The notes under the pieces are model-generated. The model was not told where the DNA came from. It did no database searches and was given only the letters and a program-made list of their open reading frames with translations. Made by a program: the position numbers and the translations under genes. This document shows positions 3,991-23,569 of a DNA stretch of 45,301 nucleotides, piece by piece (within the stretch, counting starts at the first letter, position 1; each line of letters opens with the position of its first letter). Source of the stretch: Gammaproteobacteria bacterium (GTDB lineage Bacteria > Pseudomonadota > Gammaproteobacteria > SZUA-229); the NCBI GenBank assembly GCA_022712755.1, contig JAFLJY010000279.1, forward strand, positions 1 to 45,301. Reading direction: 5' to 3'.

Positions 3991-4002
3991 ATTTTAATGA
4001 TA

Positions 4003-4029: not shown

Positions 4030-4062
4030 ATATTAACTTAACCTAGGCAACTATTTTTCAAA

Positions 4063-4836: not shown

Positions 4837-4945
4837 AGCATAAAACTTATTATTTTTATTTTCTTTTTAAGGTTGTTGCATTATAGGGTAAAAGCTCAAT
4901 ACTATTGCCATCTTCCCCCACATAAACAAAGGGAATTGCCGGTAC

Positions 4946-5028: not shown

Positions 5029-5033
5029 AGCTG

Positions 5034-5142
5034 TCATTTCCATCCTTAGGTTCGTTAATCGCACCGCCTTCCTGGCTCTTTGTGCCATAATTGCAAACAT
5101 GGCCGTCCATCCATGGACATAACAGCACGTTCCTGTGCCACT
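5034..5142. repeat. Hairpin-unit repeat element, intergenic copy (head + one 64-nt unit + tail)
   Basis: Head TCATTTCCATCCTTAGGTTCGTTAA, unit TCGCACCGCC...GTCCATCCATGGACATAA, tail CAGCACGTTCCTGTGCCACT. It is near-identical to 18139-18399, which lies inside the mshN-like gene. Confidence 0.85.
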
Positions 5143-5337
5143 ATTCAACCAACGGGAGAAATTTTATTCAGCGATAGTACAAGATCTCTCCTGTTGATCG
5201 AGATAACAGTAACGAAAAAATGTGTTGTGCAAAGCACCACTATCACACTAATTAAATGCAATCACTATACCAATATTCTATAGCCCATTAAAGCTGAATT
5301 TACAGAAATAACCCTTCTTTTTTTGATTTAAATCTGT

Positions 5338-6096: not shown

Positions 6097-6867
6097 TTAA
6101 AAATTTTTCCGGTAAAAATCAAACAGCGCAATAAAAGACAGGAACACAAGATAAATCAGAGTTTGCCCTAACAGCGGCAATAGTGTGACCCAGTCAGCGG
6201 TGTTGTAGGCTAACCATTCGGTTTGCGTAAAACGATGTAAGTCCGGCAGTAACCAGGTGATTAATTCAATCACCCCATCCATAAACTTTTGCGCCATCGA
6301 GGTGCTCACCATCACAGGAAACTGTGACATTAAAAAAATTGAGGTGACAATGCGTGACGCGCCATAAATAATAAACACGGCGGTTAATGCCGCCGGTATC
6401 TGGTTAAATGTAAACAGCATCACCAGGCTTAACGCGACCACGATGGTCAGCTCTAAAAAAAGGGAGATTGCCCAGATTAAAACCTGCTGTGAGTCTGCGT
6501 ACCACAATAACAGCAGCGCAAAGATGATGGACACCAATAAAGCAATATAAAAATAGCCAATAAGTTTACCAAGATAATAACTGGCTCGATGTATGGGCAT
6601 CGCCATGATCATTTCCAGGGTTTTATCCTGTAACTCTCGAAGGCTGCTGGTAACCACAAACAGCGTTACCATAACAACAGCGCTTATTCGCAAAAAAGCA
6701 CCGAGAATAGCGACCTGTGTTACCCGGTGTTCGGTAATAGTTAGATCGCCGATAAATTCAACCAACGCAAAGCTGATGGCGATAATAAGAAATGACAGTA
6801 GTAATAGCCGATTGCGCAATGACTCAATGATGGTGAAGCGGGCAATTGTCAGAATTTGAGTGATCAT
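6097..6867 (-). CDS. ABC-2 type transporter permease (NosY-like topology)
   Basis: 256 aa, strongly hydrophobic, with about 6 TM helices. The call rests on architecture and on the nearby ABC ATPase only. Confidence 0.65.
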   Translation of the reverse strand: MITQILTIARFTIIESLRNRLLLLSFLIIAISFALVEFIGDLTITEHRVTQVAILGAFLRISAVVMVTLFVVTSSLRELQDKTLEMIMAMPIHRASYYLGKLIGYFYIALLVSIIFALLLLWYADSQQVLIWAISLFLELTIVVALSLVMLFTFNQIPAALTAVFIIYGASRIVTSIFLMSQFPVMVSTSMAQKFMDGVIELITWLLPDLHRFTQTEWLAYNTADWVTLLPLLGQTLIYLVFLSFIALFDFYRKNF

Positions 6868-7136: not shown

Positions 7137-8822
7137 ATGCCATCAAATAATCAATTCCTGCTCAACAACGAACACCGCTTATTAGGCTTAATGCTGTCCA
7201 GTTTGCTGGCTGCCATTTATCTGGGCGATAGCGACATGATTTCGCTCAGTTTTTTAATTGCGCATTTTGGCTTTTTTCTGCTGTGGCAGCCGGTGGTTAA
7301 AAAGCAGGCGACCTTTAGTACTAAGCAGATTATTACTTTATCGGTTTTAATCTTTGCATTTATTTACTGGTTTAATCCCTGGCTGAATGTTTTCTGGTCT
7401 TTGCTGCTGCTCACCCTGTTAACCGGACGTATTTTTGCTCGCGGCCTTTCCCGTGCGGCTTACGGCTTCGCCGTCATCATTCTGTTTATTCAACTTATAT
7501 TAATTACTACCCCTGAACTGTTTAACCTTAACGCACTTTCATCATCAATGCAGTCAACGTTCAGCATGGTATTAATGCTACTGCCGTTAGCCTTACTGTT
7601 CATGCCGGTAACAGACACTGCCTCAAAGCAGATTGATTTTATTCGTGGATTTTTTGTGGTATTGCTGGTTATCTTTTTATGTATGAGCAGTGTATTAATC
7701 AGTCTAACTGCTAACCAGCCCTACATTGAATCATTAGCCATCAGCGTTTTTATCTTAAGTCTGTTTTTACTGCTAACCGCAGTATTATGGACACCGCGTA
7801 GCGGCTTTGCCGGGTTGGCGCAATTATGGGAAAAATACATTTTGGATATTGGCGGGCCTTTTGAGGAATGGGTGACGCATGTATCAAGCCTGGAAACCAA
7901 CACCAGCCTCAGAGCTGAAAACTTTCTTGCCGCAAGCTTACGCTATCTGATGCAGCAACACTGGATTTGCGGTGTTCATTGGCATACAAAAACAAATGAT
8001 GGTTTTGAAGGTGAAAAATCATCGTATCAGGTTAGTATCAATGATGAAAAACTGAAATTAACGCTGCATACCTATACCCCAGTCGGTCCTTCATTAATGT
8101 TACATGCAAAATTACTACTCAGTGTTTTAACCTTTTACTATCGAGCCAAATTACAGGAACAGCAACTCATTAAACAGGCGCATCTACAGGCTATTCATGA
8201 AACTGGCTCCAAGCTTACTCATGATATGAAAAATATTTTGCAATCGACCCATACCATGACACAAATCATTAATGATGACGACTCACAACTGTCAGAGATT
8301 ATTGATTCGCTAAAAAAACAAATGCCTTTATTAACTCAGCGTCTAAACACGACCCTGGAAAAATTACGAGCACCACAAAAAACAGAGCAGGTAACAAAAA
8401 GTTTAAGCGGCTCATTACTGCAATGGTGGAACCAGCTTCAGCATCGCTACACCGAAGGTCACCTACAGTTTTCCACTGACATAAATAAAGATATAGAAAT
8501 ACCTGTTGATGTTTTTACTACGGTAATTGAAAACCTGCTCGACAACGCCCGCAGTAAACGAAGCAGGGAACCTGAGCTTAAAATAGTGGTGCGACTTGCC
8601 AATAACAATGGACAGTTATGCTTGTCTGTGTGCGATACCGGTAGTGCGATTGACTCACAGATAGCAGAGCAGTTATTTAAAGAAGTAGTTTCGTCGCACG
8701 ATGGTTATGGCATTGGCCTTTACCAGTGTTATGAGCTTGCCAGGAATCATGGCTATGAATTGAGTGTTAAGGACAATATTGACAGGCGTGTTTGTTTTGC
8801 TTTAAAGCAAAAAATAAAATAA
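7137..8822 (+). CDS. Polytopic sensor histidine kinase (PrsK-like architecture)
   Basis: 561 aa with about 8 N-terminal TM helices. H-box SKLTHDMKNILQS, N-box ENLLDNA, G-boxes DTGSAI and GYGIGL. It converges on the pseudopilin gene with an 8-nt gap. Confidence 0.85.
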   Translation: MPSNNQFLLNNEHRLLGLMLSSLLAAIYLGDSDMISLSFLIAHFGFFLLWQPVVKKQATFSTKQIITLSVLIFAFIYWFNPWLNVFWSLLLLTLLTGRIFARGLSRAAYGFAVIILFIQLILITTPELFNLNALSSSMQSTFSMVLMLLPLALLFMPVTDTASKQIDFIRGFFVVLLVIFLCMSSVLISLTANQPYIESLAISVFILSLFLLLTAVLWTPRSGFAGLAQLWEKYILDIGGPFEEWVTHVSSLETNTSLRAENFLAASLRYLMQQHWICGVHWHTKTNDGFEGEKSSYQVSINDEKLKLTLHTYTPVGPSLMLHAKLLLSVLTFYYRAKLQEQQLIKQAHLQAIHETGSKLTHDMKNILQSTHTMTQIINDDDSQLSEIIDSLKKQMPLLTQRLNTTLEKLRAPQKTEQVTKSLSGSLLQWWNQLQHRYTEGHLQFSTDINKDIEIPVDVFTTVIENLLDNARSKRSREPELKIVVRLANNNGQLCLSVCDTGSAIDSQIAEQLFKEVVSSHDGYGIGLYQCYELARNHGYELSVKDNIDRRVCFALKQKIK

Positions 8823-8830
8823 CAAGCTCG

Positions 8831-9634
8831 TCAGGGTAGCTGATCTGCTTCCATCATTCGGCTGTATAAAATATATGGTGAGACCCAGATTATCAGGTCA
8901 TCAAATAATCCAGCTGCTGAATCTGCACTGCTATAACTCTTACTTACAAAGGCATTGCCATCGGTCACGGTGTACGCCAGGTTCTCACCTGCTGAATTTG
9001 CGCTAACGCTTGTTTCACCTGCATTTTCAATCTGATCAGCACTGGACACCACACCTGTTACAAAAGCGCTGCCATCTTTGCCTAATGCCAGTACTACAAA
9101 AGGAGCATTATCAATTAAGGTGGTAGCATTAGTTTCACAATCATCCGTTAAAGTGCTATCACCACTACAGATATGTAAATTCGGGCTTAATAAATCCATA
9201 CCAACATCCTCCATGCCACCAGAGCCAGCTAATGAGGTAAACGCATTCGAGTTACTATCAGTTACGCTGTATCTAATGGGATTGCCCCAAACATCAATAA
9301 GTAAATTATCACGATTATAGGCACCATCTATACCTAATGTTTTACCAGGTATAAAACCATGCTGCCGAGTACAAGTACCACCCACACCAGGATCTTCCTC
9401 CCCATCACTCGTTGCTATTGCGGGGCACGGCAAACGGCCTTTTGCACTGGCAAAACCTAAAAGTGCTGTCTTAATATCTTCAAGTTGGTCTTTTGTATTA
9501 TTTCGCTGTGTGGTTTCAATTCTTTGTGTAAGAGAGCCAATAAAACTACCTAACAATATACCGACAATAACCAAAACCACGGCTATTTCTATTAATGTGA
9601 ATCCCTTTTGTTTTTTTATGTTTTTTATAGACAT
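8831..9634 (-). CDS. Pseudopilin / minor pilin with prepilin-type N-terminus
   Basis: 267 aa. Signal KKQKG/FTLIEIAVVLVIVGILLG with Glu5. Motifs GRLPCPA and DVWGNPIRY (GspG-like). Its start overlaps the upstream stop by 10 nt. Confidence 0.8.
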   Translation of the reverse strand: MSIKNIKKQKGFTLIEIAVVLVIVGILLGSFIGSLTQRIETTQRNNTKDQLEDIKTALLGFASAKGRLPCPAIATSDGEEDPGVGGTCTRQHGFIPGKTLGIDGAYNRDNLLIDVWGNPIRYSVTDSNSNAFTSLAGSGGMEDVGMDLLSPNLHICSGDSTLTDDCETNATTLIDNAPFVVLALGKDGSAFVTGVVSSADQIENAGETSVSANSAGENLAYTVTDGNAFVSKSYSSADSAAGLFDDLIIWVSPYILYSRMMEADQLP

Positions 9635-11154
9635 TCGGCAACACTCATGTCCGAGTTAATGCAAAACATAATGTCATTACTCGTTAAAACATCTACGGGA
9701 GAATAGTTTTTATCGCCATTGGCATCTGGGAAATTCACGTCATTGTTATTCTCAATATAATTAGCAATATCATCTTTATCATCTACACCATCTATTGCCA
9801 TCGTGCCATCAAGTGGTGGCGCATAACGCTGTTGTGCACCCTGTTTTTCCCCTGAAAAAAAAACAATACCTGCTTTATCACCATTTAACTGAATACAACC
9901 CGCTGTACAATCACTACCCGTATTATCCGGATTATAACTTTTTGAAAGGGCATAAAAAAAATATTCCTTCCAGTTAGACCATAAATTCCAATACTCGCCA
10001 TTTTTATCAGTCAAGTTAATTGTCGTGCCATCAGAAACAAGAAGTGAACTACAAAATCCATATTCAAAAAATCCAGCATAAGGAGTAGGCGATTGTGTCA
10101 GGCTATTACCAATTGTCAAATTGGAATTTAATACTTGATAGGGTAACCTGCCAGCATGCCCATTAGTATCATTGGCATTATCATCATAACTGTAGTTATT
10201 TCTGTATTCATTACCATTCAAATTCATTGCTGCTGGCCAGGGCAGTGATTTTTTTCCCACAGTATTATCATTATCTTTTGCATATTCAGCCAGACACATA
10301 GCCATTGCTTCTGCCAGATTCCTCATTTTATTATTAAACATGGTGCCTGTAATGCTTGCTTTTATCACTTCCCAAAATTCTTGATGGCTAATAGTAATCA
10401 ATCGATCATTCAGTGGATTATTACCGTCCTCTGATCCGGCATAAACTGCGATAAAATCTTCTATGACATTATTAACAGAGGGGTCGATGGCAGCATTATT
10501 GGTACTACCATCATCATCCAGATAGGCAGCAATTAATGTTGCAATATCATTACCATAATAAGAACCACATGTAATCGCCGCATCATTCTCTCTTGTCTGA
10601 CCCTGCAAAGTAGTTTCTGGCGCAATAATAACTACCACTGGGCGATCCTCAGGTAAAGTACCCTGTACCGTTGCACCTGCACTATCAACCACTCTAAATT
10701 GCCCATAACTATCGGGGTTCAATCCAGCAAACGGGCTATTTTTATATGCAGGAGAAACGCCATACAATAAACAATTGCCGCTACTGTCTTTTGTTATATC
10801 AATACCAAGTGTACGCCATGGGAAGTAACCGATGGCATTAGAGTATGCAGTACCACAACTACCATCCTGTTCGCCATCAGGATTATTACTGTTATAATCT
10901 GGACAGGGCAACTTTCCTATTCTTCCAGCATGACTACCATCCGATTGCCACTTTATTAACGCATAATCCAGCAACGCCTGTTTCGCATGTTTAAGCACAG
11001 CCTGTGTGCTTTCAGCCTTATCAACCTTAATCTTAACAATCGAAATAGTAGAAAAATAATAACTGGAAACAGCTATAAAAATGACAACAACCATAACCAG
11101 CAAGGCCAGACCCTGCTGTTTTTTTTTACCTTTTGGTTGATAATTGATATTCAC
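9625..11154 (-). CDS. Giant PilX/GspK-like minor pseudopilin (non-canonical prepilin N-terminus, no Glu5)
   Basis: The ORF is open to 11217, but that start would overlap the upstream gene by 56 nt. A GTG at 11154 lies 7 nt after the upstream stop and gives the leader MNINYQPKGKKKQQG/LALLVMVVVIFIAV. It shares the ALL-x-Y/F-A...G-x-LPCP-D/A...TLGID module with the 267-aa pseudopilin. Confidence 0.6.
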   Translation of the reverse strand: MNINYQPKGKKKQQGLALLVMVVVIFIAVSSYYFSTISIVKIKVDKAESTQAVLKHAKQALLDYALIKWQSDGSHAGRIGKLPCPDYNSNNPDGEQDGSCGTAYSNAIGYFPWRTLGIDITKDSSGNCLLYGVSPAYKNSPFAGLNPDSYGQFRVVDSAGATVQGTLPEDRPVVVIIAPETTLQGQTRENDAAITCGSYYGNDIATLIAAYLDDDGSTNNAAIDPSVNNVIEDFIAVYAGSEDGNNPLNDRLITISHQEFWEVIKASITGTMFNNKMRNLAEAMAMCLAEYAKDNDNTVGKKSLPWPAAMNLNGNEYRNNYSYDDNANDTNGHAGRLPYQVLNSNLTIGNSLTQSPTPYAGFFEYGFCSSLLVSDGTTINLTDKNGEYWNLWSNWKEYFFYALSKSYNPDNTGSDCTAGCIQLNGDKAGIVFFSGEKQGAQQRYAPPLDGTMAIDGVDDKDDIANYIENNNDVNFPDANGDKNYSPVDVLTSNDIMFCINSDMSVAECL

Positions 11155-11161
11155 CGCTCGC

Positions 11162-11581
11162 CTATTTTTTGTACCAGGTTTCACCCGGTTTAAGCTGTTT
11201 TCTTTTACCGTCCACACTAACCGTTACTTGCTGGTTTTTACCAACACTGCCATGATGAACTTTTATACTGCCTATGCTTGAACTGTCCAGCGTGTTTTTA
11301 TTATTTATCCACACCACACTTTTACCATCACTGCGCGTCATGAAACCGGTGACTTCTATTTTTTTTGTGCGTTTTTTGGTGACCGTCTGGGTAACAGCCT
11401 GAGTGACTTTACCTGAACGCGCGGCATCAATTAGTGCGCGTTGCTTTTTATCAGTAAAAAGTTTCTGCAAATCAGCCACGTCATATTCTGCATAAGATGC
11501 ATTACTGCAAAGCAAACAAAACAGACCCGCTATAACTAATTTAATTTTTACGGGTTTAATTTTTATTGGTGTGTGTCTCAT
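11162..11581 (-). CDS. Small secreted assembly protein, MshK/PilP-like by size and position
   Basis: 139 aa with a signal peptide (LVIAGLFCLLCSNASYA) and a small beta-rich C-terminal domain. It follows the PilO-like gene. Confidence 0.45.
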   Translation of the reverse strand: MRHTPIKIKPVKIKLVIAGLFCLLCSNASYAEYDVADLQKLFTDKKQRALIDAARSGKVTQAVTQTVTKKRTKKIEVTGFMTRSDGKSVVWINNKNTLDSSSIGSIKVHHGSVGKNQQVTVSVDGKRKQLKPGETWYKK

Positions 11582-11586
11582 GTTTT

Positions 11587-12231
11587 TTAACGCGAGTTGT
11601 TACGACTGCTATTCGCTTTTGAACTTTTAAAAGTGTACCAGCCAAGCTCACAATAAGCTTTCAGGCTGCTATTAATTATGCCGTTATTAATGTCGACACC
11701 TTCTTTGCTTATTTTTTCTATATTACAGCGCTCTACTGCAAACAGGCCATCTGCCTTTCTCAAATCGTTTAATAAGGCAAACAGGTCACCTTCATGCGCC
11801 ATTTTTGTATCCAGCGTCATGACGCTCTTAAACACATCGATGCCACGGTACTGATTTTTTAAGTTATTTTCATTTAATAGTTTTTGCGCAGAAATGCTGT
11901 ATTTAACCGAAGGCATACCGCGTTCTTTAGCTGTACTCTGAATGGTTTCAAACCAGCTCAGGCGATCTTCAGAACCCACTACGCCCTGCTTAACTAACTT
12001 TAAAAAATTACTCTCAAACTCATCAATAATCTGATTATTTTCTACCGAACTATTTATTTTGCCCTGCCATAAACGCATTGCACGTTTTGCTGCCTGCTCA
12101 TCCTGATAAACATTATCCATATAGGCAAAAGAAACAGATACAACAATTATGCTTAATACCAGCATGACAGTAAAAACGCCAGCTGCACGAATGAATACCG
12201 GGGTCGTATTGTTAGATACGCCGTCAAACAT
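11587..12231 (-). CDS. Bitopic inner-membrane assembly protein, MshJ/PilO-like
   Basis: 214 aa with a single N-terminal TM (AAGVFTVMLVLSIIVVSVSF) and a periplasmic remainder. It overlaps the upstream gene by 8 nt. Confidence 0.5.
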   Translation of the reverse strand: MFDGVSNNTTPVFIRAAGVFTVMLVLSIIVVSVSFAYMDNVYQDEQAAKRAMRLWQGKINSSVENNQIIDEFESNFLKLVKQGVVGSEDRLSWFETIQSTAKERGMPSVKYSISAQKLLNENNLKNQYRGIDVFKSVMTLDTKMAHEGDLFALLNDLRKADGLFAVERCNIEKISKEGVDINNGIINSSLKAYCELGWYTFKSSKANSSRNNSR

Positions 12232-13807
12232 GGCCGGGAGCCTTCATGGTTATTTTTAGGCTAAAAAGTCCGGAGGTCTGTTTTTTATTAGCTTGTCTTA
12301 TCTCCACACCAGACTCAGAAGAAAATTTACTCGCTGAGCGAAGATCAACTGGCATCTTTATCACTTCAGCATTATCAACTCGCCCACTGGCTTTTAAGGT
12401 ATCAACGATTGTCTGTATCTGCTTTATTGATTCACGATAATTATGTTCTGGCTGATCGATACGCCCGGTCACTATTGCACTATGTTTAACGGCTAAGCTG
12501 TCAGTAAAGTTTGCTTTGTCTGCATCAAGGGTTTTATCAACAAGGTTTACTGCCTGCCATTCAATTTTGTCTATGTGTACTGCACCCAGTTTTTTTTTGC
12601 TGATAATATGACTTAAACTTATTAAAAAATCCAGCGGCGAAGTCGCACTGTTTGTTTTTATTTGCTGAGCCAGTTCAACTGCTGAATTCATCACCCCGGC
12701 GTTTTCAAAAACTTCTTCAAAATCTTTAAACTTATTCGCATATAACGCCTGATAGTTTTTTTCCTCCTGCACCAATAATACAATGGACTTTTCATATTCC
12801 AGCGCATTAGATAGATTAGATTGCGCGAATAATACAGCGATAATCACCACTAACAAACTTGCCGAATACAGCGCTGTCGCCGCTAATATGTTGTAATAAC
12901 GATTAAAGGACTGCCGCTGTCCGTAATGACTAACGGATAAATGCTGACTCACACATAACCAGGAAAAAATATTATCTGAAAACTTTGTCGTTATGCCTTT
13001 TAAACTTAATTTATTTTGTATGTCTTCGACAGAATGAATAGTAACGGTTTGTTTATTGCCTGACTGCTCATTGTCTTTAAAAAACCGCTGCAATGACTGT
13101 AACTGCTCATTACTACCAAGAATGTGAAGATTTATTATTTCATCGCTAGCAACCAGGTTTTGTACGCGCAAGAATTCTATCGTGCGATTAACTTCTGGTG
13201 CGGCAAACTTACCAATATCAGATATATCGCTTATGTCCTGATTGATGATGGATTGACGACTTGAAATTAATTTGCCGTTTCTAAACAATGTCTGTCTGAC
13301 ATTACTGTTTACCTGTTGACTCACCAGCAAAACAACGCCTGTTGTGGCTTTTAGGGTCTTTAGCAGTTTTTTACTAATAAGAGGTAGCGTCCATATGCCT
13401 GACAGGGGAACTTCACATTCATCCAGCACACTGAGCCATGGTTGAACTATCTGCGGATTGGTCATTGCAGCAATAAACACAATGTCATCTTTTCTTCCAC
13501 TTTTTACTCTTCCTATGATCTCACTATAACAATAATCCTGACTTGAGCGGTAATACCGGTCAATCAATCTGTTAATAACTGATTTTCTATCATTGTGGCC
13601 AACATGGGGTATCTTTTCGTTTCTGAAGTCTTCTTCAATAACATCAACAAGAAATTTCCCGGGAATATTTATCGTTTGTATCAGGTACTGACGGAAACTA
13701 TCCAGCCCGGATCTAGTTGACTCAAAGGAGAAACTTCCCACTAACTCCTTGCCCTTCCAGTGCAGTACAGTTAAACGATAACCGGTAAAATAAAATAATC
13801 GTTTCAT
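12224..13807 (-). CDS. PilM-PilN fusion-like assembly protein, MshI-like
   Basis: 527 aa: an N-domain of about 300 aa (cytoplasmic), one TM (ILAATALYSASLLVVIIAVLF), and about 190 periplasmic residues. This is the MshI architecture and size. Confidence 0.55.
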   Translation of the reverse strand: MKRLFYFTGYRLTVLHWKGKELVGSFSFESTRSGLDSFRQYLIQTINIPGKFLVDVIEEDFRNEKIPHVGHNDRKSVINRLIDRYYRSSQDYCYSEIIGRVKSGRKDDIVFIAAMTNPQIVQPWLSVLDECEVPLSGIWTLPLISKKLLKTLKATTGVVLLVSQQVNSNVRQTLFRNGKLISSRQSIINQDISDISDIGKFAAPEVNRTIEFLRVQNLVASDEIINLHILGSNEQLQSLQRFFKDNEQSGNKQTVTIHSVEDIQNKLSLKGITTKFSDNIFSWLCVSQHLSVSHYGQRQSFNRYYNILAATALYSASLLVVIIAVLFAQSNLSNALEYEKSIVLLVQEEKNYQALYANKFKDFEEVFENAGVMNSAVELAQQIKTNSATSPLDFLISLSHIISKKKLGAVHIDKIEWQAVNLVDKTLDADKANFTDSLAVKHSAIVTGRIDQPEHNYRESIKQIQTIVDTLKASGRVDNAEVIKMPVDLRSASKFSSESGVEIRQANKKQTSGLFSLKITMKAPGHV

Positions 13808-13812
13808 TAGTG

Positions 13813-15021
13813 CTATATTTTCACTCCGGCAACCGCGTCATACACTGGACCCAATACTGCCATCATTATCCACATCATAATGCCGCCCAATATAACGGTA
13901 AGTATTGGCAATATTGCCGGTTCGATTTTATCAATCGATTCTTTCACTTCCCGGTTATAAAAATAACTAACATTCAATAAAGCATCATCCATCGCACCGG
14001 TGTCTTCGCCCACTTTTAACATACGCACAATCATTGATGGGAACACACCAACTGCCTCAAAACTTTTGCTTATGATCGTGCCTTCTGAAATGCTGGCTCT
14101 GGCTTCTTTGATTGAGGCTTCAAGCACCAGGTTATCAACCATATCTTCTGATATTTTTAATGCATCTAACACTGTTATGCCTGCGCTATACATCATGGCA
14201 AAGTAATTAGCGAACCGTGCCAGTTTTATTTTTGTCATTAAGGGGCCAAAAATCCAAAAATTTAACTTTAGCCCGTCAAAATAATATTTAACCCGACTGT
14301 TGTTTTTTGCCAGCATTTTTAAACCAAATATCAGTACAAAAGGCAGGCTAAAAATTATGTACCAGTAGTCTACAAATATGTCTGAGACCACAATAAGAAC
14401 TTTTGTGTGCGTTGGAATTTCTGTACCCAGGTTTTTAATAAACGGCAACATCTGCGGCATTAAATACATCATTAAAAAAGAAACCACCAGCAAAACAATG
14501 ACAGAGACAATTGCCGGATATATCATTATTTTTTTTGTCTGTGAAACCAGCTCGTCCTGCCAGCGTATGGTTTCAGCAAGGTCGTTTAATACCACCGCTA
14601 ATTGTCCTGTCTCCTCACCAACGCGAACCAGGGTGACATACACTTTATCGAATATTTCCGGATGTTCGGCCAGTGCTAATGACAAAGTTTTACCGCCTTC
14701 AATATCATCAATAACGGTTTGTAACACATCGGTAAAATGACTGTATTCAATGCTGTCGCGAATATCTTTCAAACTGTCAATTAATGGTACGCCTGATTTT
14801 ATTAGTTGCTCTATATGAAAGGTAAAGTTGATCAACTCTCGCCGGCTGATACTTTTGCTGCGAAAACTTATTTTTGCCGCTTTATGTTGTTCTTTATAAC
14901 TTAATAAATCAAAACCCATGGTGCTCAGGCGTTTTTCCAGCTCCATGGGGTTACTTGCAACCATAGTATCGTTGCGAATTTTGCCTTTAGCATCAATCGT
15001 TCTGAATTTATAATCTGGCAC
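13813..15021 (-). CDS. mshG: Type IV filament platform protein (GspF/PilC family), MshG-like
   Basis: 402 aa with duplicated T2SSF-type repeats and 3 TM helices. GTG start preceded by an AGGAAAG Shine-Dalgarno sequence. Confidence 0.88.
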   Translation of the reverse strand: MPDYKFRTIDAKGKIRNDTMVASNPMELEKRLSTMGFDLLSYKEQHKAAKISFRSKSISRRELINFTFHIEQLIKSGVPLIDSLKDIRDSIEYSHFTDVLQTVIDDIEGGKTLSLALAEHPEIFDKVYVTLVRVGEETGQLAVVLNDLAETIRWQDELVSQTKKIMIYPAIVSVIVLLVVSFLMMYLMPQMLPFIKNLGTEIPTHTKVLIVVSDIFVDYWYIIFSLPFVLIFGLKMLAKNNSRVKYYFDGLKLNFWIFGPLMTKIKLARFANYFAMMYSAGITVLDALKISEDMVDNLVLEASIKEARASISEGTIISKSFEAVGVFPSMIVRMLKVGEDTGAMDDALLNVSYFYNREVKESIDKIEPAILPILTVILGGIMMWIMMAVLGPVYDAVAGVKI

Positions 15022-15063
15022 GGGGCTTTCCTAAATAGGACTTTCCTAAGTAATGCATCCCAA

Positions 15064-16791: not shown

Positions 16792-18518
16792 TGGCTCGCT
16801 TTTATCGGCTTGCTTTTATCGGCTAATAGCCTGGACAATTCACTAATGCGCTTTTTCACAGCTTCACGTGAGAAACTACTCTGATTGCTTTTAGACTTAA
16901 GCAAACTCGCTTCATAAAATTTAACTGCTTGCTGTTGTTTGCCCAACTGATCCAAACTCACCGCAAGATTAAAAACATAATCTGCACTTTCATTATTATG
17001 TTGCCAGGCATTAAAATAATATTGTTGTGCAGATTTCCAGTTATTCTGCTGCGCATAAATATTACCCAGTGCAAAATTAAGGTGATGCGCATTCGGGTTC
17101 TTCTGTAGTACAGATAGTAAATATTCTTTATCAGCAGGCGAAGATTGCTTATCAGGCAAATTTGACAGTGCTGCCAGTGCAGCTATCGCAATGGAATCAC
17201 GAGGATCCAGTTCTAATAGTGTTAAATAAATATTCTGTGCTAGCTGATGATTTTTTTCGATAACCGCTATCGCAGCCAACCCTAGCAATGCGTCCCGGTT
17301 GTTTTCTTCGAGTAATAAAACAGATTGATATAATGTTGCGGCTTCACCATAGCGGGCATTTTCATAAGCCAACCAGGCTGTGTCGAGCTGTTCTCCAACA
17401 GGATCAGCCTTTTTTGTTTTTTGTATTGAGACTGCGGATGCTGTGGCTTTTGATGCTGAGACTATTGGTGTTGCGGCTTTATCGCTTGCTAATTTATTTT
17501 TGGCGATCGTATCGGCGTGACTATCTGCCTGCTGTTTCGGGATCGAAGTTGCCTGACTCACCACCGAGTTATCCGCCTGGTTAGTCGCTTGAGTAATAGA
17601 TTGTTCTGCAATAAGTTGCTGCTTTGCAAGCAATACTTTTTCTTCAAGATCGGCATCACTCACCAGGTTACGAATAATTTCTGATTTTACAGGTATTGTT
17701 TCATCGTTTGTTTTAGAACGCATAGCCTGCATTGCAATCTGGTGCTTGCGTTCTAACAGTCTAATTTCTTCCTGCATGTCTTTATAATAAAACATGCCGC
17801 CAGAAACCAGTACGCCGAGGCTAATAATTAAAATGCTGAAAACCAGGGCTCTTCTACCTTTTTTTACTTCACGGTTGGTTTTATATATCAGCATTGATAA
17901 GGCTTCGTCTGACAGGCTTTCGCCACTGTAGCCGTTGCCGTTATTTTTTTTCTCTAAACTTAATCCTTCTGTTTCTATGCTTTTACCGTCATTAAAATGA
18001 GCCTTTTCTAAATGACTATGATTATAGATTTCATCCTCATCAAGCATTAACTCTTCATTGCCATCCTGTCTATCATCCATGCCCTGCAAACTTAATTCTG
18101 CAGTCGCCAGAATCGCTTCATCACTTGCCCGGGTTTTATCATTTGCATCCTTAGGTTCGTTAATCGCACCGTCTTCCTGGCTCTTTGCGAAATACCGTCC
18201 ATCCATGGACATAACCGCACCGCCTTCCTGGCTCTTTGCGCCACTATGTAAACATCGCCGTCCATCCATGGACATAATCGCACCGCCATCCGTGGCTCCT
18301 TGCGAAATACCGTCCTTCCTGGACATAATCGCACCGCCATCCGTGGCTCCTTGCGAAATACCGTCCTTCCTGGACATAACAGCACGTCCGTGTGTCACTG
18401 CTCTCTGCTCAGACATTGATGAAATTTCGTTTATTTCATCCGAACCTGCCTGTTCAAGCTGCAACGCTTTTTGTTTATCGTCCGCCGCTTTTTTCAGGGC
18501 ATCCAGTAGTAAACTCAC
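16788..18518 (-). CDS. mshN: TPR-repeat bitopic assembly protein, MshN-like, carrying an in-frame repeat insertion
   Basis: 576 aa. N-terminus MSLLLDALKKA..., TM ALVFSILIISLGVLVSGGMFYY (about residues 225-245), and C-terminal TPR repeats. Its stop overlaps the mshE start by 4 nt. Confidence 0.7.
   Translation of the reverse strand: MSLLLDALKKAADDKQKALQLEQAGSDEINEISSMSEQRAVTHGRAVMSRKDGISQGATDGGAIMSRKDGISQGATDGGAIMSMDGRRCLHSGAKSQEGGAVMSMDGRYFAKSQEDGAINEPKDANDKTRASDEAILATAELSLQGMDDRQDGNEELMLDEDEIYNHSHLEKAHFNDGKSIETEGLSLEKKNNGNGYSGESLSDEALSMLIYKTNREVKKGRRALVFSILIISLGVLVSGGMFYYKDMQEEIRLLERKHQIAMQAMRSKTNDETIPVKSEIIRNLVSDADLEEKVLLAKQQLIAEQSITQATNQADNSVVSQATSIPKQQADSHADTIAKNKLASDKAATPIVSASKATASAVSIQKTKKADPVGEQLDTAWLAYENARYGEAATLYQSVLLLEENNRDALLGLAAIAVIEKNHQLAQNIYLTLLELDPRDSIAIAALAALSNLPDKQSSPADKEYLLSVLQKNPNAHHLNFALGNIYAQQNNWKSAQQYYFNAWQHNNESADYVFNLAVSLDQLGKQQQAVKFYEASLLKSKSNQSSFSREAVKKRISELSRLLADKSKPIKASQ
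18139..18399. repeat. Hairpin-unit repeat element, amplified intragenic copy (head + 4 tandem units of 51/63/51/51 nt + tail)
   Basis: Units occupy 18164-18214, 18215-18277, 18278-18328 and 18329-18379, and the last two are identical. The head and tail match 5034-5142. The total length is 261 nt, or 87 codons. Confidence 0.9.
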
Positions 18519-18553
18519 TATAATAAACTCATGATTTTGTCTTATGCCTTATT

Positions 18554-20245
18554 TTAGGGCGAGTCTACGGCAAGATTATTTGATGTTTCCTGCTGCAGGT
18601 CTTCTAACAAATATTTTTTATAATCTGCTAAATCGCCATCAAGACTGGCATCTTGCATAACCACCGGACGAATAAAAATAACCAGTTCAGATTTAATATA
18701 TTCTTCATCAGTAAAAGAAAACAAAGCACCTAAAAATGGAATGCTGGATAAAATGGGCACACCACGATTTTCTTTATTGATTTGATCCTGCATCAAACCA
18801 CCGATAACAGCGGTTTCTCCATTATTGATTTTTAACATGGTTTCAATTTCCCTAACCTGAATAACGGGTATCTGGCTAACCACGCCCTGCTCCGCCAGTA
18901 GCGGATTCGGGTCATTTACAAAACGTATAATTCTTGAAATAGTGGGTCGTACATTCATGGTTACGACTTGCTCTTCATCAATATAGGGCGTGACCGCCAT
19001 AACAAAACCAACTGGGACTGTATTTACCGTTGTGTCTACCGTAGTCAATGCATCTGTGTTCTGATTACCGGGAACAACATTGACATCGATATTGAAATAT
19101 ACTTCATTATCGACCACTTTTAGTATTGCGGTCTGGTTGTTTAATGCCATTACTTTCGGGCTTGATAACACTTTGACGTCGCCAAAGGTTTCTAATGCTT
19201 TTAAAGTAATATTCAGTGGGTTGCCATTAATGCTTCCGGTTGTTGCCAGCTGAAAGAAGGGTGAAGCACCCAGAGCGCCTCCGATAACATCCTGTATACC
19301 CCCCTTTGCTAATACCGTCTGACCACCGACAGTTGTGGTTTCACTAATTAGAGACCAGTCGATACCGGCCTGGTAATGATCACTTAAACGCACTTCGGCA
19401 ACGGTAGCTTCTATTAATACCTGACGCTGTACATTACCAACAACCCGGTCAATAAAGTTTTTAATGGTTTTATGCATCTTTGCTGTGGCGCGCACGGCAA
19501 TAACGCCGGCTTCACGGTTGACGATAATATTGTTACCCGTTGCCATACGAGAACCTGAGCCACCCTTTATTTCCTCGCCTAATAAACCCGCTATATTGCG
19601 CGACAGGGTTGTCCAGAATTCATTAACACTCTTGTTTTCAATTTCTGAACTGGCTTTATTGTCACTACCGCTGCTGCCACCACCACCTTTCTTTTGTATG
19701 CCTGTACTGGTGGCGCCGATCTCTGTTGATACACTTACGCTACCGCTACTGGAGCGGTCGATATTTAAATAATTGATATTGTAGCTGTGCAGATACGGCT
19801 TATCTGCCATCACTTTCAGCGTATTACCTTCAACAAAATAGACAATATCAGTCTGCGACGCAATTCGGTCTAAAATTTTCGGCAAGGTCTGATCTATCGC
19901 ATTCATCGTGATCTTGCCTTTGATATTGTTATCAATATCCAGATTCAGTTCGGCATCTCTTGCCATGGAAAATAATAATTCACGAATCGGCACCTGATTG
20001 ACGACAACGGTATAGGTTTCCAGTTTTTCGCGTTTTCCGGGGCGCGGCAAAACCGGCACCCGGGTTACTGGCAATGGGATATTTGTTTTTTTCTCTGCTG
20101 CTTCATCAACTTTTGATTTGATATGCCCTTCTGAAATTGTCGGTGGATTGGTAGCACCACAGGCGACAACAAGAACGGCTGTCGCTACCGCGAAACTATA
20201 TTGTAAGATTTGTTTACTAAATTCAGGTTTTTTTATTTTTATCAT
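18554..20245 (-). CDS. mshL: Lipoprotein secretin, MshL-like
   Basis: 563 aa with a lipobox LVVAC, secretin N-domains and a C-terminal secretin core (...GVPILSSIPFLGALF). Confidence 0.9.
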   Translation of the reverse strand: MIKIKKPEFSKQILQYSFAVATAVLVVACGATNPPTISEGHIKSKVDEAAEKKTNIPLPVTRVPVLPRPGKREKLETYTVVVNQVPIRELLFSMARDAELNLDIDNNIKGKITMNAIDQTLPKILDRIASQTDIVYFVEGNTLKVMADKPYLHSYNINYLNIDRSSSGSVSVSTEIGATSTGIQKKGGGGSSGSDNKASSEIENKSVNEFWTTLSRNIAGLLGEEIKGGSGSRMATGNNIIVNREAGVIAVRATAKMHKTIKNFIDRVVGNVQRQVLIEATVAEVRLSDHYQAGIDWSLISETTTVGGQTVLAKGGIQDVIGGALGASPFFQLATTGSINGNPLNITLKALETFGDVKVLSSPKVMALNNQTAILKVVDNEVYFNIDVNVVPGNQNTDALTTVDTTVNTVPVGFVMAVTPYIDEEQVVTMNVRPTISRIIRFVNDPNPLLAEQGVVSQIPVIQVREIETMLKINNGETAVIGGLMQDQINKENRGVPILSSIPFLGALFSFTDEEYIKSELVIFIRPVVMQDASLDGDLADYKKYLLEDLQQETSNNLAVDSP

Positions 20246-20290
20246 TTTATGGGTTTGCTAAATTCAGGTTTAACCAACGTAGTCGAAATT

Positions 20291-21784
20291 TTATTGTGTT
20301 GCTGCGGTCATTTTCACCTGGTCTTTTTTTAATGTGCTGATGCGACGTAAATAAGGATCACTTGCTTTTAAAGAAGAAGGTAGCGTTCTCAGCGTTTCAA
20401 TAGCCTTATCGCGAGTGTCAAAATCGTTGTACAGTACGCCGTACCATGCACGCCCGTTTATTACTGTTTCATAGAGGTAAACCCGGGTAAAATCAAGCGT
20501 TGCGGGGGTATCGCGTAGAAATGCTTCGACTTTATCCGCATCAATGGTTCGCGCCAAAAATAGCTGAATGCTATAGTGATTGCCTGCCGTCTCATGCAGC
20601 CATTGTCTGGTTATTTCCAGGCGCTCGGTTATGCTGTCAGGTGCAACTTTTTTCTGCTCATTATTATTTTTTACTGGCGGATGTTGAATACTCACTGCCG
20701 GCGAAACCGCTGCTTGTTGTGCGTTAGTCACAGGCATCTGTTTTAATGGTTGCAGCGCTACTGAGTCCGGCTTTTTCGGGTCATTATTTATTCGCTCTGA
20801 CTTTACTGATGCCGGCTTTATTAATGTTGGCTTTATTAAGGCTGTCTCCGCCTGGCTGAAAATACCCAGATGGTTACTTCCCATATAATAACCGCTAGTT
20901 AACGCAAGGATGACTAAAATAAAACCACCAGCAAGGTATAAGTTATTCTTATTCTGGCTAACTTTGTGGCCGATTTTATTAAATTCGCTATCCAGCGCAG
21001 CTGACTTTATGTGTGACGGGGTGACGGTATGACTGCCTTCTGAATATGCCGCCATTAATGATTTGTCGGCAATAATATTTATTCGCCGTGTTAACCCATC
21101 AGAATATTTTTTTACTACACCTGCCGTTTTTTTATTAAATATATCCGGACCTTTATAGCCGACTGCACGTAAGCGGAAATTCAGATACTGCAAGGTATCC
21201 TCCGGCGCAAACGGTGATAAATTAAAGCTATGGGTAATACGTTCTTTTAGCTGGCGTATATGTGGCTGGGCAAGTTTTTCATCCAGTTCAGGCTGACCAA
21301 ACAATACCATCTGTAATAATTTGTTTTCATCTGTTTCCAGATTGCTTAACAGCCGAATCTCTTCCAGCGTTTCTATCGGCATGCTCTGCGCTTCTTCAAC
21401 AAACAGGACCACCTGTCGATTGTCAGCATGTTTTTTTAACAGATACGTCTGTATCTGCTGCATGATAGTTACTTTATTCGTCTCACCCTTTACATCGAGA
21501 TGTAATTCATGTGCGATGACTTGCAGAATATTGTCGGGGGACAGGCTTGGATTGGCGATGTAAATGACATCAACATTACCGGATAATCTGACTTCCAGCA
21601 TGCGGCACAACATGGTTTTACCACTACCCACTTCACCGACAACTTTAATGATACCTTCGCCGCTGTTAATGGCATACATTAATGCCTCTAACGCCGCACC
21701 GCGCTGACTGCCTTCAAAAAACAGACTGGTATCCGGGGTAATTTTAAAAGGCGGGCGACTTAGGCCAAAAAACTCCTGGTACAT
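20291..21784 (-). CDS. mshM: ExeA/MshM-type AAA+ ATPase with TM and C-terminal SPOR-like domain
   Basis: 497 aa. N-terminus MYQEFFGLSRPPF, Walker A GEVGSGKTM, Walker B VLFVEEAQ, and a TM at about residues 283-303. The C-terminus (YSIQLF...WYGVLYNDF) is SPOR-like. Confidence 0.85.
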   Translation of the reverse strand: MYQEFFGLSRPPFKITPDTSLFFEGSQRGAALEALMYAINSGEGIIKVVGEVGSGKTMLCRMLEVRLSGNVDVIYIANPSLSPDNILQVIAHELHLDVKGETNKVTIMQQIQTYLLKKHADNRQVVLFVEEAQSMPIETLEEIRLLSNLETDENKLLQMVLFGQPELDEKLAQPHIRQLKERITHSFNLSPFAPEDTLQYLNFRLRAVGYKGPDIFNKKTAGVVKKYSDGLTRRINIIADKSLMAAYSEGSHTVTPSHIKSAALDSEFNKIGHKVSQNKNNLYLAGGFILVILALTSGYYMGSNHLGIFSQAETALIKPTLIKPASVKSERINNDPKKPDSVALQPLKQMPVTNAQQAAVSPAVSIQHPPVKNNNEQKKVAPDSITERLEITRQWLHETAGNHYSIQLFLARTIDADKVEAFLRDTPATLDFTRVYLYETVINGRAWYGVLYNDFDTRDKAIETLRTLPSSLKASDPYLRRISTLKKDQVKMTAATQ

Positions 21785-21844
21785 TAGCTATCCATCAATT
21801 TGATTCTGCCAGGCATCATGAGACTGACTGCGGACAATCTCCTG

Positions 21845-22004
21845 GGAGCTTGTCCGCGAATAGAAATCGTAGCGAGGGGAAGCTGATTTGAGTCAGATTT
21901 TTTCATTATTTGAGGAGAATATAGGTATATTTAACGAAAATAATGGAAAAATCTGGCCAAATTCAGCTTTTCCGCAGTAGGTTCTCTATTCTCGGACAAG
22001 CTCC
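21845..22004. repeat. Long imperfect inverted repeat (about 66-nt arms, 28-nt loop), MITE-like
   Basis: Arm 21845-21910 (GGAGCTTGTCCGCGAATAG...) pairs with the reverse complement of 21939-22004 at most positions. It lies between the response-regulator stop and the mshM-like start. Confidence 0.8.
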
Positions 22005-23446
22005 TAGGTTCCATGTTTTTGCACACGACTATATAATGTTGTACGATTAATCTTTAATGCACTTGCCGCTTTACTAACATTGTTGTCGTGCATTTCCAGG
22101 GCGATTCGAATGCAGCGACTTTCAATCTCGTCGATAAGTTTATCCAGATCAAATTCATCTGCACGTATTTTCTGCATAATCATTTCATCACTCACTGAAG
22201 TCGCATTTTCTACCAGTTTGGTGGCCGACAACTGAGTCTCCAGCTCATCCATTAATTGTGCTTTATTAACACTTTGCCCTGGGTATTTTGTACCCAGACG
22301 GATAACGATATTCCTTAACTCGCGCACGTTGCCCGGATAATCATATTGCTGCCAAAGTTCTCTGGCACTTTCATCAAGGACAAAAGGCGAAACCGTATCT
22401 GCATACATTTCAATAAAGGTGTTTAACAACAGAAAAACATCATCACCTCTTAAACTGAGTGATGGCAGCTGAATATTCAGGATGCTTAGCCGATGATATA
22501 AATCATTTCTGAAGTTGCCGTTTTTCACTTCTTCAGACAGGTTTTTGTTGGTTGCCGCCAGTATTCTTGCCTGCGAATGCAGCTCTCTGGTTTCACCAAC
22601 GCGATAAAACTCGCCACTCTCTATAACACGCAGGAGTTTACCCTGTAACGGCAACGGTAACTCACCAATTTCATCCAGTAGCAAGGTGCCTTTGCCAACC
22701 TCCATAAAAAAGCCCTTATGCGCCTGTGTCGCACCGGTAAACGCACCTTTGGCATGACCAAATAATTGTGCCTCCAGTAAATCCGGCGCTATCGCTGCAC
22801 AGTTAATCGCCATATAAGGCTCACCACTGCGTTTACTGTTCTCGTGTAAAGCGCGGGCAACCAGCTCTTTTCCAGTGCCGGATGCGCCTTCAAGCAACAC
22901 TGGGAAAGGGGAGTCGGCAAATTGTGAAATCTGATTGTTCACCATTTGCATAGCAATACTATCGCCAATAATCGAAACCGTTTTTTGCGCATCACGCTGC
23001 TGGTCAATTTCGTGTAGACGCTGATGATGCTGCAAACGTGCCAGCAACAGCTCAGGTTCTGCCGGTTTGGCAATAAAATCAACCGCACCGATTGTAAGTG
23101 CGTGCTGGATATTTACGTCATTATCCTGACCCGATAATACCAGGACTTTCATGTTCGGCTGCAATGACAATAACTCACGGATAAGGGCAAAACCTTCATC
23201 CGGTTTATGTGGATAGGGCGGCAGGCCAAGATCTATCAAAGCCAAACCGGGCAGACCCTTATTGTCATTAATTTTCTGGATTGCCTGGTGGCGTGACTCA
23301 GCAGTGATGAGATTATATTGTTTGCGCAGCATAAAACCCAAACCTTCAATAATCAAAGGATCATCATCTACCAGTAATAAACAGGCGGGTGTTTTTACTG
23401 AAGCGCCAGCATCGGCCGCTATGTCTTGTTGCTCATTTTCTTGCAT
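22004..23446 (-). CDS. Sigma-54-dependent response regulator (PrsR-like receiver signature)
   Basis: Receiver LLVDDDPLI...IDLGLPPYPHKPDEGFALIRELL, AAA+ core GASGTGKE with GAFTGA, and a C-terminal HTH. The start is placed at MQENEQQ (ATG 23446) with a GGGGA Shine-Dalgarno sequence. The ORF-track start at 23524 is probably too long. Confidence 0.9.
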   Translation of the reverse strand: MQENEQQDIAADAGASVKTPACLLLVDDDPLIIEGLGFMLRKQYNLITAESRHQAIQKINDNKGLPGLALIDLGLPPYPHKPDEGFALIRELLSLQPNMKVLVLSGQDNDVNIQHALTIGAVDFIAKPAEPELLLARLQHHQRLHEIDQQRDAQKTVSIIGDSIAMQMVNNQISQFADSPFPVLLEGASGTGKELVARALHENSKRSGEPYMAINCAAIAPDLLEAQLFGHAKGAFTGATQAHKGFFMEVGKGTLLLDEIGELPLPLQGKLLRVIESGEFYRVGETRELHSQARILAATNKNLSEEVKNGNFRNDLYHRLSILNIQLPSLSLRGDDVFLLLNTFIEMYADTVSPFVLDESARELWQQYDYPGNVRELRNIVIRLGTKYPGQSVNKAQLMDELETQLSATKLVENATSVSDEMIMQKIRADEFDLDKLIDEIESRCIRIALEMHDNNVSKAASALKINRTTLYSRVQKHGT

Positions 23447-23466
23447 CCAATTTCCCCAAAAAACTT

Positions 23467-23482
23467 TGTCATAATTATGACA
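23467..23482. promoter_or_regulatory. Perfect 16-bp palindrome TGTCATAATTATGACA (operator-like)
   Basis: It lies 21 nt upstream of the response-regulator ATG and just downstream of an extended -10-like TGCTATATA on the minus strand. This is the divergent trmL / regulator region. Confidence 0.35.
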
Positions 23483-23569
23483 CTTTATATAGCAGAAATG
23501 TTGGCATGTTTTATCATGTCGCACTGAATTAACGGATTATTTACAAACTTGTATGCTTAAATAGGCGAT

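Follow-up and report, generated by a model that had tools for sequence, protein, structure and literature searches.

A putative MSHA-related type IV filament locus with its own sigma-54 regulatory pair, conserved among uncultured Gammaproteobacteria

Within the type IV filament systems, MSH loci are defined in TXSScan by five mandatory genes (mshA, mshE, mshG, mshL plus mshM, of which mshA may be a loner), and all of them were reported to be devoid of a prepilin peptidase (Denise et al. 2019, PMC6668835). The MSHA pilus of Vibrio cholerae is encoded by mshIJKLMNEGF together with mshBACDOPQ, and includes seven pilin-type genes. Here, a locus resembling this class was analyzed in a 45,301-nt stretch of DNA (hereafter the window; contig JAFLJY010000279.1 of assembly GCA_022712755.1) from an uncultured gammaproteobacterium, and compared with related loci from other genomes and metagenome contigs (numbered within the range L002 to L025). 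The region 23524-3280 was interpreted as encoding one type IV filament system, conserved as a unit and akin to the MSHA pilus, which would be responsive to cyclic di-GMP (c-di-GMP), regulated through sigma-54, and adhesive, with an estimated probability of roughly 0.6.

The locus consists of 16 genes in the order regulator, M, L, N, E, G (named after their Msh counterparts), 527-aa protein, 214-aa protein, 139-aa protein, large pseudopilin, 267-aa pilin, kinase, permease, one-pass membrane protein, pilin and ATPase, all of them on the reverse strand with the exception of the kinase gene. Ten co-directional genes, overlapping or separated by no more than 45 nt, run from 21784 to 8831; the original prediction had the coordinates, strands and spacing right, yet counted eleven genes, a number obtained only if the regulator is included. 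It had also placed the limit of the locus at position 7137, whereas synteny extends the conserved unit (approximately 20 kb) to 3280, since the operon strand continues past the kinase with genes for an ABC-2 permease, a protein crossing the membrane once, a canonical prepilin and an ABC ATPase. A survey of gene neighborhoods in relatives, a check proposed at that time, showed that the arrangement is kept in 15 genomes of the Genome Taxonomy Database (GTDB) and in further metagenome contigs, and the locus is therefore no chance grouping. The 16-gene order was present in every related genome contig reaching far enough, and also in L016 (527-aa protein 53% identical) and L020 (527-aa protein only 24% identical), the latter at the same chromosomal site, beside trmL-gpsA. 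The closest genomes corresponded to uncultured "Thiotrichaceae" and Gammaproteobacteria metagenome-assembled genomes (MAGs).

Simpler relatives retained the series L-N-E-G, 527-aa, 214-aa and small protein, large pseudopilin and pilin, with variable edges. In L022 an orthologous pilin gene lies directly after the two pseudopilin genes, and kinase, regulator and ABC genes are missing; L019 retains the permease and the one-pass protein, with the kinase and regulator absent; and L023 shows a fusion of M with the secretin and a GGDEF-EAL regulator nearby. In this last locus the ExeA-like AAA+ protein and the secretin form a single 815-aa protein (3049-5496), and the sigma-54 pair is replaced by a hybrid kinase and a REC-GGDEF-EAL protein on the flanks (15397-20435). 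A literature search retrieved no account of this gene arrangement.

The protein assignments of the original prediction were borne out at the domain level by Pfam and NCBIfam models (the regulator domains, AAA_22, secretin, TPR, T2SSE with MshEN, T2SSF, N_methyl and HATPase_c). The secretin (18554-20245, 563 aa) was of the MshL type, passing the cut-off of TIGR02519 (259.6 vs. 250.2 bits) and remaining under those of the GspD (152 vs. 351) and PilQ (118 vs. 284) models. The extension ATPase (15064-16791, 575 aa) combines PF00437 (T2SSE) with the c-di-GMP-type N-terminus PF05157 (MshEN, 48.9 bits) and a tetracysteine motif; it matched NF053729 (60.3 bits vs. a cut-off of 38), and both the c-di-GMP motif KLGQQLLDKGLISIDQLDIALTEQ and the four cysteines were read directly in the sequence. 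At the domain level it is an MshE-type ATPase, with c-di-GMP binding predicted; its scores on the PilB (511 bits) and GspE (508 bits, cut-off 630) models were nearly equal, each below its cut-off. The platform protein (13813-15021, 402 aa) carries T2SSF and belongs to the MshG/GspF/PilC family, GspF being its best NCBIfam model (297 vs. a cut-off of 424). The ExeA/MshM-like AAA+ protein (20291-21784, 497 aa) is composed of a cytoplasmic AAA_22 domain, a transmembrane (TM) segment at residues 282-300 and a periplasmic SPOR-like C-terminus, the latter a weak match (19.5 bits, under the 21-bit Pfam cut-off); its best NCBIfam model was TIGR03015 (218.8 vs. 324.5). The MshN-like TPR protein (16788-18518, 576 aa) is anchored in the membrane by a TM segment at residues 225-243, and its repetitive cytoplasmic N-terminus is encoded by 51-nt tandem repeats (18258-18379).

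The three genes that follow encode proteins outside named families. The 527-aa bitopic protein (12224-13807) consists of a PilM-like actin-fold cytoplasmic domain, a TM segment at residues 307-325 and a periplasmic alpha/beta domain. No match in Pfam, NCBIfam or PDB sequences was detected for this protein, a Pfam scan of 42 diverse members of its family returned nothing, and hhalign revealed no similarity between the family and the PilM and PilN of a type IVa pilus (T4aP) from locus L019. A profile search of the protein database with this family mostly returned close relatives. The family comprises 1,453 representatives at 50% clustering, every one of them unnamed, and the cluster names of its distant members, which come from Gammaproteobacteria MAGs, are all "hypothetical". 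When its AlphaFold2 model (predicted local distance difference test, pLDDT, of 59, with a better N-terminal domain) was searched with Foldseek, the top matches were PilM structures (2ych and 5eoy, E approximately 1e-6), and EpsL (1w97) was also retrieved, which suggests with moderate confidence a GspL/MshI-like architecture, that is, a PilM-N fusion. The 214-aa bitopic protein (11587-12231), with an N-terminal TM segment at residues 17-35, was considered PilO/GspM/MshJ-like by position and topology only, and the 139-aa secreted protein (11162-11581), which has a signal peptide, MshK/PilP-like by position only. Neither of them matched a Pfam or NCBIfam family, and nothing useful emerged when the Pfam threshold was relaxed to E values up to 5 for the orphan proteins.

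With the MSHA system of V. cholerae the locus shares an MshL secretin above cut-off, an MshEN ATPase, a T2SSF platform, ExeA/MshM-like AAA+ and MshN-like TPR proteins, a protein of the PilM-N fusion type, the N-E-G and I-J-K-like blocks, and an essentially single-locus organization without prepilin peptidase (no Peptidase_A24 match was found among the annotated open reading frames, ORFs, of the window, as had been predicted). It differs in its gene order, M-L-N-E-G-I-J-K, which had already been recognized as distinct from that of Vibrio, in I/J/K-like proteins without detectable similarity to named families, in the presence of three pilin-type genes instead of seven, in the TM segment and SPOR-like domain of the AAA+ protein, in having its own sigma-54 two-component pair, ABC-2 module and sigma-54 pilin promoter, and in its host, an uncultured sulfur-oxidizing gammaproteobacterial lineage. 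The assignment to a type IV filament system nearest the MSH type, proposed in the original prediction, is supported by the secretin, the ATPase, the AAA+ and TPR proteins and the absent prepilin peptidase, and on the mandatory-gene definition of TXSScan the locus appears to fit the MSH class in outline.

A six-frame motif scan of the window identified exactly three prepilin-like N-termini. The first belongs to the large pseudopilin (9625-11154), a pilin-like protein of approximately 509 aa if translated from the likely GTG start at 11154 (the ORF was listed as 9625-11217, 530 aa), with the leader MNINYQPKGKKKQQG followed by LALLV, a hydrophobic helix without Glu5 and a Cys-rich head. Its AlphaFold2 model (pLDDT 89.9, predicted TM-score, pTM, 0.87) showed a 60-residue N-terminal helix and a large head whose cysteines are conserved, and on this basis the protein is predicted to be pilin-like in architecture. 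No PDB structure matched the model with E < 1, a sequence search against the PDB was empty, and no Pfam or NCBIfam family was detected. The PilX/GspK label initially given to it is not supported by the fold, the likeness being confined to the N-terminal segment, with its class-III-like leader and Glu5-less helix.

The second N-terminus (KQKG↓FTLIEIAVV, the arrow marking the cleavage site) is that of the 267-aa prepilin (8831-9634), whose gene overlaps the preceding one. It carries N_methyl and TIGR02532, its best specific model was GspG (42 vs. a cut-off of 89, N-terminus only), and it is probably a minor pilin. The third belongs to a canonical type IV prepilin (4063-4815; ...ARQG↓GFTLIEIAIVLVIIGLLLGG, N_methyl and TIGR02532), with G↓FTLIEIAIVLVIIG around the cleavage site. 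This gene lies 2.3 kb past the kinase gene, outside the coordinates covered by the original prediction, in which the locus was termed "pilin-poor"; the term was an overstatement, the number of pilins being low only relative to Vibrio. Its product shares 40-43% identity with its orthologues in L022 and L023, where these are the terminal pilins, and it is a core part of the system, because simpler relatives carry the orthologue directly after the two pseudopilin genes. From its sequence context it is probably the major pilin. The fiber, initially regarded as unknown, was in this way narrowed down to a conserved prepilin with a sigma-54 promoter. The length of the leader varies, from approximately 27-28 residues here (MKKVNKQKMLANWTSRPPCERLVGARQG; 4063-4836) to 8-9 in L004 (MNKVLRQKG).

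The near-identical strain L025 allowed the divergence of the pilins to be compared with that of the machinery. Protein identity was 95-99.5% for the regulator, M, L, E, G, the 527- and 214-aa proteins, the kinase and the ABC-2 genes, and somewhat lower for the 139-aa protein (91%) and the TPR protein (88%), while the third pilin, the 267-aa pilin and the large pseudopilin reached 71%, 70% and 40%, respectively. Since all three were replaced in concert between strains, they are likely to belong to one surface-exposed filament, and such swapping and diversification between otherwise near-identical strains makes a surface-exposed adhesive pilus the most likely product. In L025 a YoeB/YefM toxin-antitoxin pair (15306-15814) separates the kinase from the 267-aa pilin gene, and two small membrane ORFs (19967-20303) separate the pilin from its sigma-54 promoter. 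Insertions appear to concentrate at the edges of the pilin genes.

The concerted replacement also argues against a periplasmic pseudopilus, and thereby bears on the possibility that the locus is a divergent type II secretion system (T2SS), in which a pseudopilus would drive folded proteins out via the secretin, GspL, GspM and GspC would have their counterparts in the 527-, 214- and 139-aa proteins, respectively, and ExeA/GspA in the AAA+/SPOR protein. The T2SS of Aeromonas is known to include AAA+ proteins of the ExeA type that carry a peptidoglycan-binding domain, and the resemblance extends to the Glu5-less helix of the large pseudopilin, the cell-wall-binding-type domain of the AAA+ protein, the GspL-like fusion architecture with EpsL among its fold matches, the platform and pilin N-termini for which GspF and GspG are the best models, and the ATPase, which scored as high on GspE as on PilB. 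However, none of the PilB, GspE, GspF, GspD, PilQ and GspG cut-offs was reached by the proteins of the locus (GspD 152 vs. 351, GspE 508 vs. 630, GspF 297 vs. 424, GspG 42 vs. 89), and the secretin passed the MshL cut-off instead. No GspC, GspH, GspI or GspJ was detected in the window, only three prepilin-type genes are present, the fold of the large pseudopilin is unlike GspK, and the pilin has a strong-looking promoter of its own. Moreover, hypervariability between near-identical strains, as seen here in the three pilins, is a common trait of exposed pili, unlike periplasmic pseudopilins. A T2SS was consequently considered unlikely, and an MSHA-related surface filament preferred.

The locus is bracketed by the genes of a putative two-component pair. 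The sigma-54 enhancer-binding response regulator (22004-23446) has a REC-AAA+(Sigma54_activat)-HTH_8 organization and 480 aa if translated from M27 (23446), the likely true start, although the ORF extends to 23524 (506 aa); the gene was called at 480 aa in L025 as well. The receiver signature DLGLPP-x6-EGF and the GAFTGA loop described earlier were both read in it (DLGLPP-YPHKPD-EGF), along with the receiver Asp and Lys and HTH_8. The sensor histidine kinase (7137-8822, forward strand, 561 aa) is polytopic, with approximately 6-8 TM segments in residues 15-220, and its HDMKN H-box was likewise found (THDMKN). The N, G1 and G2 boxes are intact, HATPase_c is the sole detectable Pfam domain, and no PAS or HisKA match was obtained. 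Both proteins look functional from their motifs. Among the loci examined, the kinase was found only where the regulator was also present, as far as contigs permitted the check. The two genes lie 13 kb apart on opposite strands. Ranking of PDB sequences returned only generic NtrC-family and kinase matches for the pair.

A sigma-54 type -24/-12 element, TGGTATAGTGATTGCA (5272-5257, reverse strand), was identified upstream of the prepilin gene 4063-4815. Eight relatives keep it in the form TGGTAYAGWAATTGCW, and the very distant L020 has it in the form CGGCACAATTTTTGCT. In the kinase/regulator loci, a GG-N10-GC element with TTGCW is located approximately 50-190 nt upstream of the pilin start, and it was detected in all ten loci with the kinase (and with the regulator where the contig reaches it), while no GG-N10-GC/TTGC element was found upstream of the orthologous pilin in any of the three loci without the pair (L019, L022 and L023). 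In a neighbor-joining tree of ATPase and platform sequences, L020 was placed outside all other loci, and the pair-less loci were nested between L020 and the clade of the window. Pair-bearing loci thus occur both outside and inside the pair-less ones, which is suggestive of at least two independent gains or losses of the kinase/regulator pair. A search for shared enhancer sites ahead of the pilin gene yielded no more than a short conserved dyad, TTTAC-T-GYAAA, approximately 32 nt upstream of the -24 position.

Upstream of the regulator, an alignment of 13 loci revealed a second promoter-like element (TGCCAACATTTCTGCTATATAA, 23485-23506, reverse strand), with ACATGGCAACATTTCTGCTATATAAGG as its conserved form. 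In eight out of 12 related loci it reads TGG(C/T)N3-CATTT-CTGCT, which is -24/-12-like, and its GG is lost in the window, L003, L004 and L025. An extended -10-like sequence, TGCTATATAA, overlaps this element in all loci but L020. The regulator is the first gene of the operon, because regulator and M gene are only approximately 6 nt apart in other relatives. No -24/-12 element was found before the mshM-like gene itself, in agreement with the original prediction.

The sigma-54 promoter of the pilin gene could also be driven by the neighboring NtrB/NtrC, as part of a nitrogen-regulated pilus, with the regulator of the locus controlling something else. These are bona fide NtrB (302 bits vs. a cut-off of 240) and NtrC (1514-3016; 689 vs. 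559), encoded convergently approximately 260 nt from the ABC ATPase, an adjacency conserved in relatives. Nevertheless, L022 retains NtrBC-glnA next to the orthologous pilin and has no -24/-12 element there, so that the activator is more plausibly the regulator of the locus than NtrC. In addition, the element tracks the kinase/regulator pair, and by-eye inspection revealed no NtrC site of the TGCACC-N5-GGTGCA type upstream of the pilin. Control by NtrBC was therefore regarded as very unlikely. In the window ntrB and ntrC occupy 347-3016, and a -24/-12-like sequence, TGGTTCAGTTATTGCA (320-335), precedes the annotated ntrB start by approximately 12 nt; glnA adjoins ntrBC in L022, and in this genome it would fall off the window. 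Nine perfect tandem copies of TTTAAGT (3012-3076) extend from the ntrC stop codon between the convergent ntrC and ABC ATPase genes.

With the regulator of the locus as the candidate activator, the closest functional analogy is found in Pseudomonas aeruginosa and other T4aP, where PilS, a kinase with six TM segments, interacts with PilA, and PilR together with sigma-54 activates pilA (PMC6058289). The best reading, by analogy, is that control of the pilin follows the logic of PilS/PilR, a polytopic kinase and a sigma-54 activator presumably driving the major pilin gene. Both systems have a polytopic kinase with minimal loops, an NtrC-family sigma-54 activator and a -24/-12 promoter directly upstream of the pilin gene, a resemblance at the functional level. 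Here, in contrast, the kinase and regulator genes are far apart on opposite strands, the kinase has no PAS or HisKA match and an HDMKN H-box, and the machine is MSH-like rather than T4aP.

A different origin for the pair was suggested in the original prediction, in which the regulator and the kinase were likened to PrsR and PrsK. Haft et al. (2006) based the definition of PrsK, PrsR and PrsT on their occurring together with the PEP-CTERM box, with tandem kinase and regulator genes in 12 out of 13 PrsK/PrsR genomes, and motif 1 of the box ends in TTTACA, 32-92 nt upstream of the sigma-54 site (PMC1569441). If regulators of this type had been recruited to, or were shared with, the filament locus, it would be consistent with the nominal top NCBIfam matches of the regulator (TIGR02915), the kinase (TIGR02916) and the AAA+ protein (TIGR03015), and with PrsT (TIGR02917) as the second match of the TPR protein. 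A TM kinase, a sigma-54 regulator and a TPR protein also share one neighborhood in both cases, with a single gene behind a sigma-54 promoter as the target, and the dyad TTTAC-T-G(C/T)AAA upstream of the pilin may recall the TTTACA end of motif 1. The scores, however, were far under the cut-offs: 341.4 vs. 502.6 for the regulator, 60.5 vs. 300 for the kinase, 219 vs. 325 for the AAA+ protein and 41 vs. 312 for the TPR protein, so that the cut-offs of all three Prs models were widely missed. The regulator score is generic to the NtrC family, given that the genuine NtrC of the window reaches 339.1 on TIGR02915, and on the NtrC model the regulator was again below the cut-off (335.5 vs. 559). The kinase aligned with TIGR02916 only at model positions 463-676, that is, the kinase core and not the defining N-terminal domain of PrsK. 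Furthermore, a tandem arrangement is lacking, the target gene encodes a prepilin, and neither the window nor the relatives yielded exosortase, PEP-CTERM or exopolysaccharide (EPS) genes, the absence of the first two having been noted from the start. Membership in PrsK/PrsR was accordingly rejected, and a PEP-CTERM-box origin of the pair seems highly improbable; the PilS/PilR-like reading was retained.

The pilin gene is also flanked by ABC transporter genes in conserved positions. An ABC-2 type permease with 6 TM segments (6097-6867) is followed by its conserved partner, a family-less 249-aa protein with a single N-terminal TM segment (5338-6087), which was present in L002-L020, including the kinase-less L019, and an ABC transporter ATPase of the DrrA/ABC-2 exporter type (3280-3990) lies directly downstream of the pilin gene; all are on the reverse strand. 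To our knowledge, a requirement of ABC genes for pili has been established only in Myxococcus. In M. xanthus the pilin gene and a sigma-54 pair likewise have genes for a small family-less protein, an ABC-2-type permease and an ABC ATPase beside them (pilS-pilR-pilA-pilG-pilH-pilI), but the order here is permease, unknown protein, pilin and ATPase, and the likeness is one of gene arrangement. The ABC genes beside pilA in Myxococcus (the pilA-pilGHI arrangement) have been described (PMC6060248).

In the filament proposed here, the MshE-type ATPase, a predicted c-di-GMP binder, and the MshG-type platform would polymerize the pilins, roles deduced from their domains. The 527-aa PilM-N/GspL-like, 214-aa bitopic and 139-aa secreted proteins would form the inner-membrane alignment set, and the filament would exit through the MshL-type secretin, whose assembly the membrane TPR protein and the ExeA-like AAA+/SPOR-like protein probably assist. 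The large Glu5-less pseudopilin and the 267-aa pilin, translationally coupled at the end of the operon, most likely prime or tip the filament, and the prepilin 4063-4815 would be its major subunit. As their co-occurrence suggests, the gene of this subunit would be transcribed from the sigma-54 promoter under the enhancer-binding regulator of the locus, which would in turn be phosphorylated by the polytopic kinase. It is more speculative, and held with less confidence than the model as a whole, that pilin within the membrane may be what the kinase senses. An accessory module flanking the pilin gene would be made up of the ABC-2 permease, the one-pass protein and the ABC ATPase.

Several observations weigh against this model. 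MshL was the only MSH-specific model whose cut-off was passed, the proposed MshI/J/K equivalents match nothing named by sequence, the PilM-like model of the 527-aa protein is only moderately confident (pLDDT 59), and neither a prepilin peptidase nor a retraction ATPase is found within the window. The major pilin was chosen by gene position and promoter only. Regarding its control, the pilin ATG of this strain lies approximately 430 nt from the promoter, with a perfect 30-bp hairpin in between, no enhancer site (upstream activating sequence, UAS) was identified, and -10-like hexamers overlap both conserved promoter regions, so that sigma-70 transcription is possible. Finally, the co-occurrence of promoter and regulator spans few independent lineages, and the tree of ATPase and platform sequences has no outgroup.

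Insertions and repeats were also observed. Between the promoter and the pilin start there is a strain-specific insertion of approximately 380 nt (within 4840-5256), whereas in relatives the promoter lies approximately 50-60 nt from the ATG, and L025 has different inserted DNA at the same position. The insertion contains a perfect 30-bp inverted repeat (4946-5028, reverse strand; arms 4946-4975 and 4999-5028), as well as a stretch approximately 90% identical to the 51-nt repeats of the TPR gene (18139-18387 region), which indicates that a piece of one gene of the locus was copied into the 5' region of another. No Rfam family was assigned in the whole window or in the long pilin leader, where only spurious miRNA-hairpin matches to the 30-bp repeat were obtained. 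In this strain and its closest relative only, regulator and mshM-like gene are 219 nt apart (approximately 6 nt in others). This gap holds a 168-nt imperfect palindrome (21841-22008, no strand assigned; 83-nt arms, 76% complementary) that overlaps the stop codon of the regulator. Given that L010 has a copy with 86% identity elsewhere (17501-17633), between two other genes, the palindrome seems to act like a small mobile element resembling a miniature inverted-repeat transposable element (MITE).

The locus is flanked in the window by trmL, gpsA, secB and a rhodanese gene on one side and by NtrB/NtrC on the other, flanks that assign the window to a gammaproteobacterium. Apparently unrelated to the filament are a DsrC-like gene (sulfur oxidation; 31116-31532), an extracytoplasmic function (ECF) sigma factor with a ChrR-type anti-sigma factor (37260-38508) and a DUF4331-TPR-HupE/UreJ cluster (38961-43211).

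Taken beyond this genome, the locus may tentatively be viewed as the regulated and most elaborate form of an undescribed, widespread clade of type IV filaments lying outside the MSH, T2SS and T4aP models, hosted by uncultured, mostly marine-sediment and vent Gammaproteobacteria. Such a clade would be characterized by the L-N-E-G order, by the PilM-N-like, bitopic and small secreted proteins, by a pilin of approximately 500 aa unmatched in the PDB and by two more pilins, and one of its lineages would have gained or retained a sigma-54 circuit analogous to PilS/PilR and an ABC-2 module around the major pilin gene. The results point to a large uncharacterized filament family, related to MSH and T2SS, in uncultured sulfur-cycling Gammaproteobacteria. 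Family models are missing for half of its components, and one component is confidently predicted to adopt a fold that has no solved relative; these orphan components would be useful for building models of the TXSScan type and are candidates for structural work. From the co-occurrence of promoter and regulator, control of the pilin gene by the kinase/regulator pair via sigma-54 is predicted. PilS/PilR-like pilin feedback may have been assembled more than once, or may predate T4aP. The strain-level swap of the three pilins, in turn, implies that, in sediments and vents, the filament may be a target for grazers, phage or kin discrimination.

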